From: a virus
Taxonomy: Duplodnaviria; Heunggongvirae; Uroviricota; Caudoviricetes
Length of the DNA stretch: 25,991 nucleotides
Direction: 5' to 3' (one strand)
IMG/VR virus record: IMGVR_UViG_2913137851_000001
Shown here: positions 12,912 through 16,623 of the stretch, piece by piece
Layout of the letters: each line of letters begins with the position of its first letter
Position numbering within the stretch: the first letter of the stretch is position 1
Notes under the pieces: model-generated
Seen by the model: the letters and a program-made list of their open reading frames with translations, nothing else
What the model was told of the DNA's origin: nothing
The model's database searches: none
Program-made: the position numbers and the translations under genes

Positions 12912-12933
12912 AACCCGCTTCGGCGGGTTTTTG
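12912..12933 (+). terminator. Rho-independent terminator after relBE-hokD
   Basis: ACCCGC-TTCG-GCGGGT hairpin followed by TTTTTGTTTTT. Confidence 0.7.
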
Positions 12934-13059
12934 TTTTTATTTTCAACGCGTTTGAAGTTCTGGACGGTGCCGGAATAGAATCAAAAATACTTAAGTAGCG
13001 CGCAGGGATAAGAGGGATGGTCCCTTAAAGGGGAGAGCTAATTATCCGGAAGGATTCTG

Positions 13060-13311
13060 ATGATGAACATCGAAGAACTGCGTAAAATTTTTTGTGAAGA
13101 TGGCCTCTATGCTGTGTGCGTTGAAAATGGAAATCTTGTTAGTCATTACCGCATTATGTGTTTGCGAAAGAATGGGGCTGCGTTAATTAATTTTGTGGAT
13201 GCTCGGGTCACGGACGGATTTATCTTGCGCGAAGGTGAGTTTGTCACTTCATTACAGGCATTGAAAGAGATCGGAATAAAAGCTGGCTTTTCTGCTTTTT
13301 CAGGAGAATAA
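13060..13311 (+). CDS. rem: Rem (small prophage protein)
   Basis: 83-aa ORF MMNIEELRKIFCEDGLYAVCVENGNLVSHYRIMCLRKNGAALINFVDARVTDGFILREGEFVTSLQALKEIGIKAGFSAFSGE, consistent with recalled Rem. GGAAGGA SD. Confidence 0.7.
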   Translation: MMNIEELRKIFCEDGLYAVCVENGNLVSHYRIMCLRKNGAALINFVDARVTDGFILREGEFVTSLQALKEIGIKAGFSAFSGE

Positions 13312-13377
13312 ACTCATCTACAATCTTGCGCGGGGCTGAACTCCCGCTGAGTAACACCGTGCCACCGGAGAAAACCG

Positions 13378-13656
13378 ATGGCACGCAACGCAAAATATTA
13401 CAATTCTGATAATTCGCCCGTTCTTGCCTGCACGCACGGGCGGTATTCTCACGCATTCAAGTCTGAATGGTTCCAGCACCCTCCATGCACTGCAGAACAG
13501 GCCGAATGGCTGATTCATTCTTACCGCAGGCGCGGGTTCGAGGTTAAGAAAGCTCTCAGTCTCGACTATCGGCACTGGATAATCTCTGTCAGGCTGCCTT
13601 ATTCCGAACGCCCACCACGTGCGTCCCGCACTTTCCAGCAACGGATCTGGAGGTAA
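13378..13656 (+). CDS. Hypothetical 92-aa protein, translationally coupled to ydfU
   Basis: GGAGA SD then ATG at 13378. Its last codons (..GGAGGTAA) supply the SD for the ydfU GTG start 1 nt downstream. Product contains Cys/His residues (CTHGRYSH ... HPPC). Confidence 0.55.
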   Translation: MARNAKYYNSDNSPVLACTHGRYSHAFKSEWFQHPPCTAEQAEWLIHSYRRRGFEVKKALSLDYRHWIISVRLPYSERPPRASRTFQQRIWR

Positions 13657-13657
13657 C

Positions 13658-14707
13658 GTGCGGGTATTACTTAGACCTGTTCTGGTGCCTGAGCTTGGGC
13701 TGGTGGTCCTTAAGCCGGGCCGTGAATCCATACAGATATTTCATAATCCTCGAGTGCTGGTGGAACCGGAACCAAAAAGCATGCGTAATCTGCCATCCGG
13801 AGTCGTTCCTGCCGTTCGCCAGCCGCTGGCGGAAGACAAAACATTGCTGCCGTTTTTTAGTAACGAACGGGTGATTCGTGCTGCTGGCGGCGTTGGCGCA
13901 TTGTCCGACTGGCTATTACGTCATGTTACATCCTGCCAGTGGCCTAATGGCGATTACCATCACACTGAAACAGTCATTCACCGTTATGGTACCGGCGCAA
14001 TGGTGTTGTGCTGGCACTGCGACAACCAACTGCGTGACCAGACATCGGAATCACTGGAGCTGCTTGCTCAACAAAATCTGACAGCATGGGTGATTGACGT
14101 CATCCGTCACGCAATAAGCGGTACGCAGGAGCGGGAATTATCTTTGGCTGAATTATCCTGGTGGGCGGTCTGCAATCAGGTGGTGGATGCACTACCTGAG
14201 GCTGTATCGCGTCGTTCGCTGGGATTACCAGCGGAAAAAATCTGCTCGGTGTACCGCGAAAGCGACATCGTACCGGGAGAGCAGACCGCCACCAGCATAT
14301 TGAAACAACGCACAAAAAATCTTGCACCGTTGCCTTACGCCCACCAGCAACAAAAATCACCACAGGAAAAGACGGTGGTAAGCATCACCGTTGATCCAGA
14401 GTCTCCGGAATCTTTCATGAAGCTGCCTAAACGTCGCCGCTGGGTTAAGGAGAAATACACACGTTGGGTTAAGACACAGCCGTGTGCTTGCTGCGGTATG
14501 CCAGCCGACGATCCGCATCATCTGATTGGTCACGGGCAGGGCGGAATGGGAACAAAAGCACATGATCTCTTTGTGTTGCCTTTGTGCAGAAAGCATCACA
14601 ACGAGCTGCATACGGATACAGTGGCATTTGAAGATAAGTATGGCTCCCAACTGGAGCTGATATTTCGTTTTATCGATCGCGCGCTGACAATTGGCGTACT
14701 GGCGTAA
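13658..14707 (+). CDS. ydfU: YdfU (DUF968-type protein with C-terminal Cys/His-rich, HNH-like motif)
   Basis: 349 aa if started at GTG 13658 (GGAGG SD), matching the recalled K-12 length. C-terminus CACCGMPADDPHHLIGHGQGG ... CRKHHNELH. Confidence 0.7.
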   Translation: MRVLLRPVLVPELGLVVLKPGRESIQIFHNPRVLVEPEPKSMRNLPSGVVPAVRQPLAEDKTLLPFFSNERVIRAAGGVGALSDWLLRHVTSCQWPNGDYHHTETVIHRYGTGAMVLCWHCDNQLRDQTSESLELLAQQNLTAWVIDVIRHAISGTQERELSLAELSWWAVCNQVVDALPEAVSRRSLGLPAEKICSVYRESDIVPGEQTATSILKQRTKNLAPLPYAHQQQKSPQEKTVVSITVDPESPESFMKLPKRRRWVKEKYTRWVKTQPCACCGMPADDPHHLIGHGQGGMGTKAHDLFVLPLCRKHHNELHTDTVAFEDKYGSQLELIFRFIDRALTIGVLA

Positions 14708-16107: not shown

Positions 16108-16407
16108 AAAAATTCCTTAATACTGATAACTTGGCGCACTATACACACGTTCCTGAAGAAAGCTATAGTTTTTTGATGGGGTTGAAGATGGCTGGATGTC
16201 TAAAATAAACATTGCTTCATATGTTCAACTATGCGTTAATGATTGCGTCGGTTTGAAGAACAGACGATATACGAAGTAGTTTACTAAAGCAGTTCTCATT
16301 TCAGGTGTTATTCACTTATTCCTTCTTTGAGTCTCTCCAATTAAGTACGAAGTCGTTTCTGTTATGCAAACCATTTATGCCGAAAGGCTCAAGTTAAGGA
16401 ATGTAGA

Positions 16408-16623
16408 ATGTCAAATAAAATGACTGGTTTAGTAAAATGGTTTAACGCTGATAAAGGTTTCGGCTTTATTTCTCCTGTTGATGGTAGTAAAGATGTGTTT
16501 GTGCATTTTTCTGCGATTCAGAATGATAATTATCGAACCTTATTTGAAGGTCAAAAGGTTACCTTCTCTATAGAGAGTGGTGCTAAAGGTCCTGCAGCAG
16601 CAAATGTCATCATTACTGATTAA
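16408..16623 (+). CDS. cspB: Cold-shock protein CspB
   Basis: 71-aa product [71 protein letters not shown], the CspA family with RNP1/RNP2 motifs. Confidence 0.9.

Follow-up and report, generated by a model that had tools for sequence, protein, structure and literature searches.

The window, the whole stretch of 25,991 nucleotides analysed here, is the Qin prophage of Escherichia coli. Between rem and ydfU it carries an open reading frame (ORF) of 92 codons, ATG to TAA (13378..13656, plus strand), and both a reading of the sequence and comparison with related prophages mark it as a genuine and conserved phage gene that the curated K-12 annotation missed. Codons 27–92 are under purifying selection at the protein level that is specific to the frame of the ORF. 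We regard it as likely that the explanation developed below holds as a whole, namely, that a gene of the lambdoid nin region has been missed in K-12 and that it would be coupled to ydfU, linked to Rho-dependent termination and accessory to a recombination module.

Position and annotation of the gene

The ATG at 13378 follows a Shine–Dalgarno-like GGAGA (13367..13371, plus strand) at a distance of 6 nt, both as described in an earlier note on this DNA. That note gave a span of 13378–13660, of which the start is right and the end is not; the ORF stops at 13656, and the earlier end therefore includes the start codon of ydfU. The ATG is the sole in-frame ATG, GTG or TTG before codon 27, and we reject a separate internal start for the conserved part of the protein, codons 2–27 being free of all three triplets in this frame. 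In most relatives, the Shine–Dalgarno sequence of the ORF is a weaker AGAGA or GCAGAG, and its distance to the invariant ATG is unchanged. This site, weak (AGAGA) in most variants, may also be partly paired.

The ORF is 100% identical to positions 1644306..1644584 of MG1655, minus strand. The curated MG1655 record (NC_000913.3) leaves the interval between ydfU and rem empty, whereas the NCBI PGAP pipeline calls the 92-aa product in K-12 derivatives as WP_012304870.1, “hypothetical protein”, a call present in 29 of the 30 hits sampled, and its UniProt entry is A0A094VVT9, “Prophage protein”. The gene is thus unlisted, as had been claimed, in the curated record but not in PGAP or UniProt. Because the curated K-12 list omits the ORF yet automatic annotation calls it, what we describe is a minor gap in annotation rather than a system of a new type. 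Adding the ORF at these coordinates on the minus strand would tidy the MG1655 reference annotation, with small practical effect.

The junction with ydfU and a predicted hairpin

The last two sense codons of the ORF (TGG AGG) contain a GGAGG (13649..13653, plus strand) that lies 4 nt 5′ of the ydfU GTG and is invariant in all of the ∼160 loci. This agrees with the proposal that the last codons of the ORF would form the ribosome-binding site of ydfU. The junction itself, a putative coupling site (13654..13660, plus strand), was read directly and compared across loci; it consists of the TAA stop (13654–13656), a single spacer base (C13657; T in a few variants) and the GTG of ydfU (13658–13660), which accordingly starts 1 nt past the end of the ORF, as first noticed. 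Conservation of this overlap in related prophages had been suggested as a check, and the arrangement TGGAGG-TAA-N-GTGCGGG is kept in all of the ∼160 loci examined. The ORF–ydfU junction is present in about 4200 of 5426 complete E. coli genomes.

Folding predicts an mRNA hairpin over the Shine–Dalgarno sequence and start codon of ydfU (13625..13664, plus strand; −19.3 kcal/mol). In this hairpin, positions 13625–13631 pair with 13658–13664, that is, with the GTG plus the 4 nt that follow it, and positions 13632–13638 pair with 13647–13653 (CUGGAGG). The z-score is −3.0, with equally stable folding in 1 of 200 shuffled sequences, and the hairpins of three variants have energies of −15.8 to −18.7 kcal/mol (z-scores of −2.1 to −3.6). 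Its 131-nt context folds no better than shuffled sequences (z-score of 0.08). Among the variants, the 5′ arm of the GTG-pairing stem (13625–13631) changes from C to U only, with retention of G–U pairs; T13632 is replaced by A in most variants with the loss of one terminal G–U pair, and the loop varies freely. The stem shows no compensatory double changes among the variants, and the invariance of its 3′ arm has causes other than pairing. An Rfam scan gave no match in the region of the ORF.

A hairpin that hides both the Shine–Dalgarno sequence and the GTG of ydfU fits translational coupling. Ribosomes that reach the end of the ORF would unfold the hairpin and either reinitiate or allow loading at the ydfU GTG. 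The output of YdfU would thereby be tied to translation of the ORF and would rise and fall with it. In classical translational coupling, stop and start codons are a few nucleotides apart, the downstream Shine–Dalgarno sequence lies inside the upstream ORF and the start is masked by mRNA structure. The ORF and ydfU resemble such pairs in their 1-nt stop–start distance, in the GGAGG within the last two codons and in the weak GTG start, and may resemble them in the predicted hairpin, which would cover the Shine–Dalgarno sequence and start and overlaps codons 83–87 of the ORF. This hairpin has a z-score of about −3 and no compensatory covariation, and it is from the anatomy of the pair that we infer coupling from the ORF to ydfU.

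Selection on the reading frame

In its six frames, the window has 46 ORFs that are 92 aa or longer, and a length of 92 codons alone is unremarkable. The ORF stands out beyond chance because of comparative evidence, not because of its length. Its ATG, frame and TAA are kept in all 54 distinct DNA variants, which represent ∼160 prophage loci, and the sole length change among them is an in-frame 6-nt indel within codons 1–26. The other two plus-strand frames contain stops in all variants of the ORF. Over the whole ORF, pN/pS is 0.275 versus 1.67 and 1.20 in the remaining two frames, and for codons 27–92 (pS of 0.363, pN of 0.051), it falls to 0.14 versus 2.87 and 1.94 in the shifted frames. Variable sites in codons 27–92 number 21, 23 and 53 by codon position, which places 53 of 97 at the third position. 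Together with membership in a known protein family (below), the intact frame and the low pN/pS support the earlier proposal that the ORF is a real, translated gene.

Codons 1–26 (13378..13455, plus strand) behave differently, with a pN/pS of 0.70, no frame preference and 16, 19 and 20 variable sites by codon position. Translation of this nearly unconstrained part is suggested by three things only: the absence of another start, the invariant ATG and the open frame.

Protein family and predicted structure

A homology search, as had been proposed, assigned the product to phrog_1212 (E-value of 1.7e-35, 121.9 bits). The match joins residues 27–92, encoded at 13456..13653 (plus strand), to profile positions 1–66 of 66, so that the conserved domain aligns over the full length of the family. 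Examples of phrog_1212 are STM1021.1n of Gifsy-2, gp051 of mEp237, gp017 of Cronobacter phage phiES15, gp72 of Edwardsiella phage GF-2 and ORF47 of PY54; Orf QD1 of N15 is joined to these by a fold search. The homologues fall into two forms. The first comprises 129 proteins of 90–92 aa, every named one of which comes from Escherichia or Shigella. The second is made up of relatives of 66–68 aa with 37–50% identity, found in Salmonella Gifsy-2, mEp237 and phages of Klebsiella, Citrobacter, Kluyvera, Cronobacter, Yersinia (PY54), Edwardsiella and Erwinia. In the alignment with these shorter relatives, 4 columns are invariant and 15 nearly so, and conserved residues common to the product and phrog_1212 include K28, W31, H34, C37, T38, Q41, A42, Y49, R52, G53, D63, W67, L73, P74, R81 and W91. 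The family is small: a profile search of 1.84 billion representatives retrieved only 107 proteins. At 50% identity, the family amounts to about 100 representatives, and it occurs only in phages of enterobacteria.

The gene shares with the 66-aa forms its placement in the nin region and its tail-to-head junction, in which a Shine–Dalgarno sequence lies within the last codons and the next gene begins 1–2 nt past the stop; in the 66-aa relatives, the junction reads TGGGGGTGA-NN-ATG, directly before NinG or YbcO. The differences lie at the two ends. The Escherichia/Shigella form has an N-terminal extension of 24–26 residues that is absent from the 66–68-aa relatives, and it has its own Shine–Dalgarno sequence after a non-coding gap, whereas the 66-aa forms start on the stop codon of a DUF1367 gene. 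The next gene encodes a DUF968 protein in the Escherichia/Shigella form and NinG or YbcO in the 66-aa forms. The Escherichia lineage would have lost the original Met start (MK.. to AFK..) and taken over an upstream ATG with a weak Shine–Dalgarno sequence of its own, and this is probably how the extension arose.

AlphaFold2 (AF2) predicts a β-α-β-β core (residues 27–74; core pLDDT of 88–91) followed by a basic C-terminal tail. The extension is predicted to be disordered, with pLDDT values below 50 for residues 1–21. Searches of the product against Pfam, NCBIfam and PADLOC gave no match (PADLOC at an E-value of ≤0.01, where YdfU and Rem likewise gave none), the fold search returned no significant match for it and a sequence search of the PDB found chance-level matches to RNase LE only (E-value of about 0.1). 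A Glyoxalase/VOC superfamily label, attached by one source to the relative P0175, was not reproduced, and we do not place the product in that superfamily, as it shows neither a match to a VOC-family HMM nor the paired β-α-β-β-β fold with metal ligands.

These data bear on a reading in which the ORF is translated purely as a leader, bringing ribosomes to the GTG of ydfU and protecting the RNA against Rho, the peptide itself having no function. Such a leader would account for the conserved overlap of stop, Shine–Dalgarno sequence and start, for the predicted hairpin over the ydfU start, for an N-terminal third that evolves almost neutrally and for the lack of a family, fold or defence-system match that points to an activity. 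We nevertheless consider it very unlikely, since the selection on codons 27–92 reaches far beyond the last codons that bear the Shine–Dalgarno sequence, the 66-aa domain is kept in other genera before different downstream genes and the predicted fold is compact and confident. A gene whose protein product is itself under selection remains our preferred reading.

The C-rich stretch and Rho

The ORF lies largely within a C-rich, G-poor stretch of rut-like composition (13300..13650, plus strand; about 30% C versus 20–24% G), which is the sole “bubble” of C over G between 12950 and 13860, the stretch scanned. Among the strongest Rho-dependent terminators of K-12 is one described as “upstream of ydfU” (PMC9160355), a strain in which Rho silences this part of the prophage, and the position of the terminator would correspond to 13300–13650. 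If the ORF were untranslated, its mRNA would be exposed to strong Rho-dependent termination 5′ of ydfU, and the translation status of the ORF could thus decide whether Rho terminates before ydfU. Strong termination at this place also suggests that the K-12 RNA is poorly covered by ribosomes in the laboratory. Most of the “intergenic” region between rem and ydfU is occupied by the ORF, and listing the gene would change how this region is to be read in studies of Rho-dependent silencing.

The same observations could be taken to mean that the stretch is not a gene at all, but an untranslated ydfU leader serving as a Rho-loading (rut) and termination zone to silence the prophage, with the reading frame being incidental. 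The C-rich, G-poor composition exactly over 13300–13650, the reported terminator and the empty interval in the curated MG1655 annotation would fit this, as would the supplement of one E. coli initiation-profiling study (Stringer et al., preprint), which has no entry at the coordinates of the ORF. A frame that is incidental is, however, hard to reconcile with its persistence in every variant, with the excess of variable sites at third codon positions, with a pN/pS that is low in one frame and 1.9–2.9 in the others or with homologues recognizable at the protein level in other genera, and we judge this reading to be very improbable indeed. A gene and a rut site are in any case compatible, as an untranslated ORF leaves its RNA free to act as a rut site.

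Composition of the product

The 92-aa protein has a mass of 11.1 kDa and is basic, as expected from the earlier reading (pI of 10.2; 16 Lys and Arg versus 7 Asp and Glu). It contains five His and two Cys residues, some of them in the motifs CTHGRYSH and HPPC, which the earlier note had singled out and which might hint at a metal site. A small zinc-finger-like protein that binds metal through Cys and His would be in keeping with this content and with the conservation of H34 and C37 across the family. The remaining candidates do not bear it out: C18, H20 and H25 of the CTHGRYSH motif belong to the unconstrained N-terminus, which the 66-aa forms lack, and most relatives have other residues in their place, so that H34 and C37 are the only conserved potential ligands left. 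Furthermore, there is no zinc-finger match in Pfam, and the modelled β-α-β-β fold is neither a knuckle nor a treble clef. We give a metal-binding role hardly any credence.

The ydfU gene and the mosaic module

YdfU (13658..14707, plus strand; 349 aa) is a His-Me-finger/HNH-type nuclease of the DUF968 family by Pfam (E-value of 2.6e-76), PHROG (PHROG 96, “HNH endonuclease”; E-value of 7e-171) and annotation; its classification as a His-Me finger follows PMC5714182. The reference gene occupies 1643255..1644304 of NC_000913.3, and a start at 13658 yields its 349 aa. The frame is also open from a GTG at 13619, from which the ORF list gives a 362-aa ORF. With a start there, the last 38 nt of our ORF would be out of frame inside ydfU and the tail-to-head coupling would be illusory. 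A reference start at this GTG, named earlier as a finding that would refute the ORF, has a negligible chance of being the true one: RefSeq and PGAP both use 13658, the PHROG 96 alignment takes in the 349-aa form from its first residue (protein 1–349 versus profile 1–334), no Shine–Dalgarno sequence precedes 13619 whereas GGAGG precedes 13658 and the GTG is lost in 43 of the 54 variants because codon 82 of the ORF is CCG or CCA, giving GTC.

The ORF and ydfU travel together as one unit, a module also carried by phages such as mEp460, Tritos and PhiR42_1. Many E. coli matches begin at base 62 of the query, equivalent to window position 13361, which lies 17 nt 5′ of the ATG and which we take as the approximate left edge of a mosaic module, given the start of DNA homology and a shift in GC content (rem, 40%; ORF, 53%; ydfU, 52%). 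To the left of 13361, prophages differ, with rem in Qin and hok in others. Megablast counts for the ORF alone and for the 5′ end of ydfU alone were not usable as a test of co-occurrence because the divergent N-terminus of the ORF lowers its detectability. A consensus scan showed weak promoter-like sites only, at 12952–12981 and 13297–13324.

Gene neighbourhood and possible function

The gene order in Qin is relBE-hokD-rem-ORF-ydfU-ydfT(Q), which corresponds to the nin/late-regulation region upstream of Q, and that of the relatives is DUF1367-X-NinG/YbcO-(RusA)-Q, where X is the family member. We scored about 35 contexts, and in about 29 of these loci the gene that follows encodes DUF968, NinG or YbcO; on the upstream side, most loci of the 66-aa form have a DUF1367 or NinB-like gene. 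DUF968, NinG and YbcO are all His-Me-finger nucleases (PMC5714182). Two phages depart from the pattern: in PY54, the next gene is a 175-aa ORF without assignment that follows a 48-nt gap, and in Erwinia phage 59, it encodes a cytosine methyltransferase.

Since the relatives usually sit between a recombination mediator of the NinB/DUF1367 type and a His-Me-finger nuclease, the 92-aa protein is most likely an accessory of a phage recombination or junction-processing module, and could act as a nucleic-acid-binding helper or as a partner of the nuclease. This is the least certain part of our explanation and is drawn from gene neighbourhood alone; the conserved order could reflect plain inheritance of nin-region synteny without a functional partnership.

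A stronger version, in which phrog_1212 proteins are dedicated partners (inhibitor, chaperone or specificity subunit) of nin-region His-Me-finger nucleases across NinG/Rap, YbcO/DUF1364 and YdfU/DUF968, strikes us as unlikely, though less so than the alternatives weighed above. If it were true, the junction of stop, Shine–Dalgarno sequence and start would set a fixed ratio of the two proteins, and the fast-evolving N-terminal extension in Escherichia might serve as an additional arm for interaction or regulation.

The immunity proteins of colicins E7 and E9 are small proteins encoded next to HNH/His-Me nucleases. By analogy with them, the small gene described here, which adjoins a His-Me-finger nuclease gene, might be co-expressed with it. 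In contrast to the colicin immunity proteins, the product has no sequence or fold similarity to them and its gene lies upstream, not downstream, of the nuclease; in addition, the nuclease family changes (NinG, YbcO or DUF968), and the two exceptional phages have no nuclease directly downstream. An immunity or inhibitor function is therefore a lead to follow and nothing firmer.

NinE, NinF and NinH of lambda are encoded in the same part of the lambdoid map, are of similar size (56–68 aa) and are tightly packed with their neighbours; NinE and NinF precede ninG, and NinH follows it. Homology to these three proteins was rejected (hhalign probability of 0.09–0.13%, E-values of 0.4–0.6), and they are positional analogues only. 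The family as a whole persistently precedes recombination nucleases, and it is a cheap target for studies of lambdoid NinR-type recombination.

Identification and annotation of the small gene

The window is Qin, a cryptic prophage of E. coli, in which relB, relE, hokD and rem are followed by a 92-codon reading frame, ydfU and ydfT, the gene for a Q-like antiterminator. The frame runs from ATG to TAA on the plus strand (13378..13656), with a GGAGA motif on the same strand at 13367-13371, 6 nt 5' of the start codon. Its final two sense codons, TGG AGG, contain a GGAGG motif (13649-13653, plus strand); these are followed by the stop codon (13654-13656), a single spacer C (13657) and the GTG start of ydfU (13658), from which the 349-aa YdfU of the reference record is encoded. 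The earlier note had read this anatomy correctly, but its end coordinate for the small gene, 13660, takes in the ydfU start codon. With 16 Lys and Arg residues versus 7 Asp and Glu, the product is basic (pI 10.2).

The frame is identical at every base to MG1655 1644306..1644584 (minus strand). Its description as unlisted holds for the curated MG1655 record NC_000913.3, which contains no feature from the end of ydfU (1644304) to the start of rem (1644651), but not for the databases. PGAP calls exactly this frame in a K-12 derivative (WP_012304870.1, 'hypothetical protein') and annotates it under 29 of 30 sampled E. coli matches, and UniProt entry A0A094VVT9 ('Prophage protein') is the identical protein, found on at least 1000 contigs. 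The gene is not new: it belongs to an established family of hypothetical phage proteins, and the point to record is that the curated K-12 annotation lacks it. Of 5426 complete E. coli genomes, 4319 match a 461-nt probe that covers the gene and the ydfU start, 4224 of them over at least 80% of the probe.

A weak promoter-like site lies shortly 5' of the gene (13297-13324). The start region is possibly paired as well (GUGCCAC, 13358-13364, with UGGCACG, 13379-13385), although the fold overall is not significant (z -1.5). In hok-linked variants, a CTGCTG-CGC-CAGCAG hairpin adjoins a weak AGAGA ribosome-binding site.

Coding evidence

We gathered ~160 prophage loci from IMG/VR, which contain 54 distinct nucleotide versions of the gene, down to ~65% protein identity. 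The ATG, the frame and the TAA are kept in all 54, and the sole length difference is an in-frame 6-nt indel. For codons 27-92, pN/pS is 0.14 in this frame (pS 0.363, pN 0.051) and 2.87 and 1.94 in the shifted frames, and the variable sites number 21, 23 and 53 at the first, second and third codon positions. Many columns vary only synonymously, among them L73 (CTG/TTG/CTT/CTC) and G53 and A42 (four codons each). Judged by this substitution pattern, codons 27-92 encode a protein under purifying selection, and the frame-specific synonymous variation rules out a chance reading frame or a purely RNA-level element for this part.

Codons 1-26 lack a coding signature among the 54 versions, with a pN/pS of 0.70 (pS 0.305, pN 0.214) versus 0.95 and 0.69 in the shifted frames and 16, 19 and 20 variable sites by codon position. 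Since no alternative in-frame start (ATG, GTG or TTG) precedes codon 27, the ATG is invariant and the frame stays open despite heavy divergence, these codons are probably translated nonetheless. The earlier note's proposal that this is a genuine gene set up for coupling with ydfU is supported by sequence comparison.

Some copies in cryptic prophages (E. coli, Kluyvera, Kosakonia and Leclercia; loci L175, L187, L191, L194, L195 and L197) are degraded: they carry frameshifts or premature stops, or read through into the gene that follows. Such copies are expected of a small gene that decays along with its prophage.

Family, N-terminus and fold

Searches of Pfam and NCBIfam returned nothing for the product. 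In PHROGs it matches phrog_1212 (function unknown; E 1.7e-35), and residues 27-92 span all 66 profile positions. Only Escherichia, with E. albertii and E. marmotae among its species, and Shigella carry full-length homologues of 90-92 aa. Versions of 66-68 aa with 37-50% identity are found in Salmonella Gifsy-2 (STM1021.1n), coliphage mEp237 (gp051) and prophages or phages of Klebsiella, Citrobacter, Kluyvera, Enterobacter, Cronobacter, Hafnia, Edwardsiella, Yersinia (PY54) and Erwinia. Among 1.84 billion cluster representatives, a profile search at E <= 0.001 retrieved just 107 proteins, a small family limited to enterobacterial phages.

Conserved positions are K28, W31, H34, C37, T38, Q41, A42, L45, Y49, R52, G53, L60, D63, W67, S70, L73, P74, R81 and W91. 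The Cys and His residues singled out in the earlier note therefore do not support a metal site: only H34 and C37 are conserved, and C18, H20 and H25 fall in the variable N-terminus. The usual family start, M-K-x-S-W-F, aligns with A26-F27-K28; the Escherichia lineage lacks a Met at this position and begins 26 codons upstream instead. The original start may have been lost and a new ATG captured, leaving a near-neutral linker, and this N-terminal extension is itself worth recording.

Two AlphaFold2 models agree on a disordered segment (residues 1-21, pLDDT < 50), a compact core with strands 27-33, 55-60 and 67-74 and helix 39-52, and a basic C-terminal tail of low confidence. In the model from the deeper alignment, block-mean pLDDT is 88-91 across residues 31-70. 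The best Foldseek match in the PDB is uninformative (E 0.19), and the sole match among viral models, phage N15 'Orf QD1', is a sequence relative; the predicted fold yields no functional lead. No similarity to lambda NinE, NinF or NinH emerged in profile comparison, and PADLOC was negative too. In two Escherichia phages (H42, vB_EcoS-689R5; H43, vB_EcoS-813R8) the homologue region is deposited as 'toxin to Rem | mobile element protein', an odd label that our family searches do not support.

Neighbourhood and possible role

In Escherichia, a ydfU-like DUF968 gene always lies directly 3' of the small gene, with the same junction. The upstream neighbour is rem in prophages of the Qin type; others have a hok toxin module there, before which a QueH-like (DUF208) gene sometimes lies. 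Similarity between prophages starts at ~13361, 17 nt 5' of the ATG, and GC content, 40% in rem, climbs to 53% in the small gene and 52% in ydfU. Constant downstream and varying upstream neighbours, together with this edge and the GC rise, indicate that the small gene and ydfU form one mosaic module. A mosaic joint lies at the rem boundary (13311-13361).

The 66-aa relatives, which lack the Escherichia-type extension, are typically preceded by DUF1367 or a NinB-like gene and followed by NinG or YbcO (DUF1364), sometimes RusA, and then Q. NinG, YbcO/DUF1364 and DUF968 are all His-Me-finger nucleases (PMC5714182), and a gene of this class directly follows the small gene in ~29 of the scored loci, a persistent pairing that merits note. 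Homology and fold searches assigned no function to the product; the sole lead is that its gene lies between one for a recombination mediator (NinB/DUF1367) and one for a structure-specific nuclease, which suggests that it is an accessory of the NinR-type recombination module of the phage. That it is a partner of the nuclease itself seems to us unlikely. Conserved synteny alone could underlie the pairing, and two phages break the pattern: in PY54 a 48-nt gap and a 175-aa ORF without known function follow the small gene, and in Erwinia phage 59 a cytosine methyltransferase comes first, then NinF and NinG.

The junction with ydfU

The junction TGGAGG-TAA-N-GTGCGGG, in which the end of the small gene supplies the ydfU ribosome-binding site as the earlier note proposed, is retained in every one of the ~160 loci, and an Arg codon three codons 5' of it varies freely (CGG, CGC, CGT). 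The 66-aa relatives end in TGG GGG TGA, with the ATG of NinG or YbcO 2 nt on, so that one principle applies throughout the family: a ribosome-binding site in the last codons and the next start right after the stop. A longer ydfU starting at GTG 13619, which would place the end of the small gene inside ydfU, is disfavoured: reference and PGAP annotations both use 13658, the PHROG 96 profile alignment begins at residue 1 of the 349-aa form, and in 43 of the 54 variants codon 82 is CCG or CCA rather than GCG, so that GTC replaces GTG13619.

An mRNA hairpin is predicted at the junction (13625-13664, plus strand), in which codons 83-87 of the small gene pair with the ydfU ribosome-binding site and GTG. 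One stem joins 13625-13631 (CCCGCAC, codons 83-85) to 13658-13664 (GUGCGGG), and the other joins 13632-13638 to 13647-13653 (CUGGAGG). The predicted stability is -19.3 kcal/mol (z -3.0; equalled in 1 of 200 shuffles) and, in three natural variants, -15.8 to -18.7 kcal/mol (z -2.1 to -3.6); a longer context of 131 nt is not unusually stable. In the 5' arm of the GTG-pairing stem, variants show only C to U changes that retain G-U pairs, and a T to A change at 13632, shared by most variants, eliminates a terminal G-U pair in the other stem. Variation in the loop is unrestricted, the 3' arm is invariant in any case and compensatory double changes are absent among the variants; we consider the hairpin plausible but unproven. 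The junction anatomy and the weak GTG start fit classical termination-reinitiation coupling, in which ribosomes finishing the small gene would melt the hairpin and then hand over to the ydfU start.

A published study (PMC9160355) ranks the terminator in front of ydfU with the strongest Rho-dependent ones in K-12. Within the scanned stretch 12950-13860, only 13300-13650 has C clearly above G (~30% versus 20-24%), and this part coincides with the small gene, an overlap that should be noted. We infer that the gene would serve as a Rho-loading zone when it is not translated, and the supposed intergenic rut zone may thus be an untranslated reading frame. Such loading would account for the silence of ydfU in laboratory K-12, and perhaps also for the missing entry for the small gene in one initiation-profiling supplement. 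Polarity and coupling would then both tie ydfU expression to translation of the small gene. The Rho observation equally counts as evidence that K-12 translates the gene poorly under standard conditions.

Other features

Directly 3' of hokD lies a canonical intrinsic terminator (AACCCGC-TTCG-GCGGGTT and a T-run, 12912-12937), followed by a weak sigma-70-like promoter match (12952-12981) upstream of rem. The 83-aa Rem (13060-13311) has no Pfam family and matches phrog_340 (function unknown); its far sub-threshold match to the NCBIfam SocB toxin model (E 0.01, 14.9 bits versus a cut-off of 210) is probably due to chance. In the Qin csp gene cluster, an Rfam cspA thermoregulator match (16247-16500, 106 bits) is cut at the edge of the scanned stretch. 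A 22.9-kb contig labelled 'MAG: Veillonella parvula' (L170, JAGZPX010000007.1) carries rem, the small gene and ydfU, whose products are 91-99% identical to those of E. coli Qin, and is most likely a mis-binned Escherichia contig.
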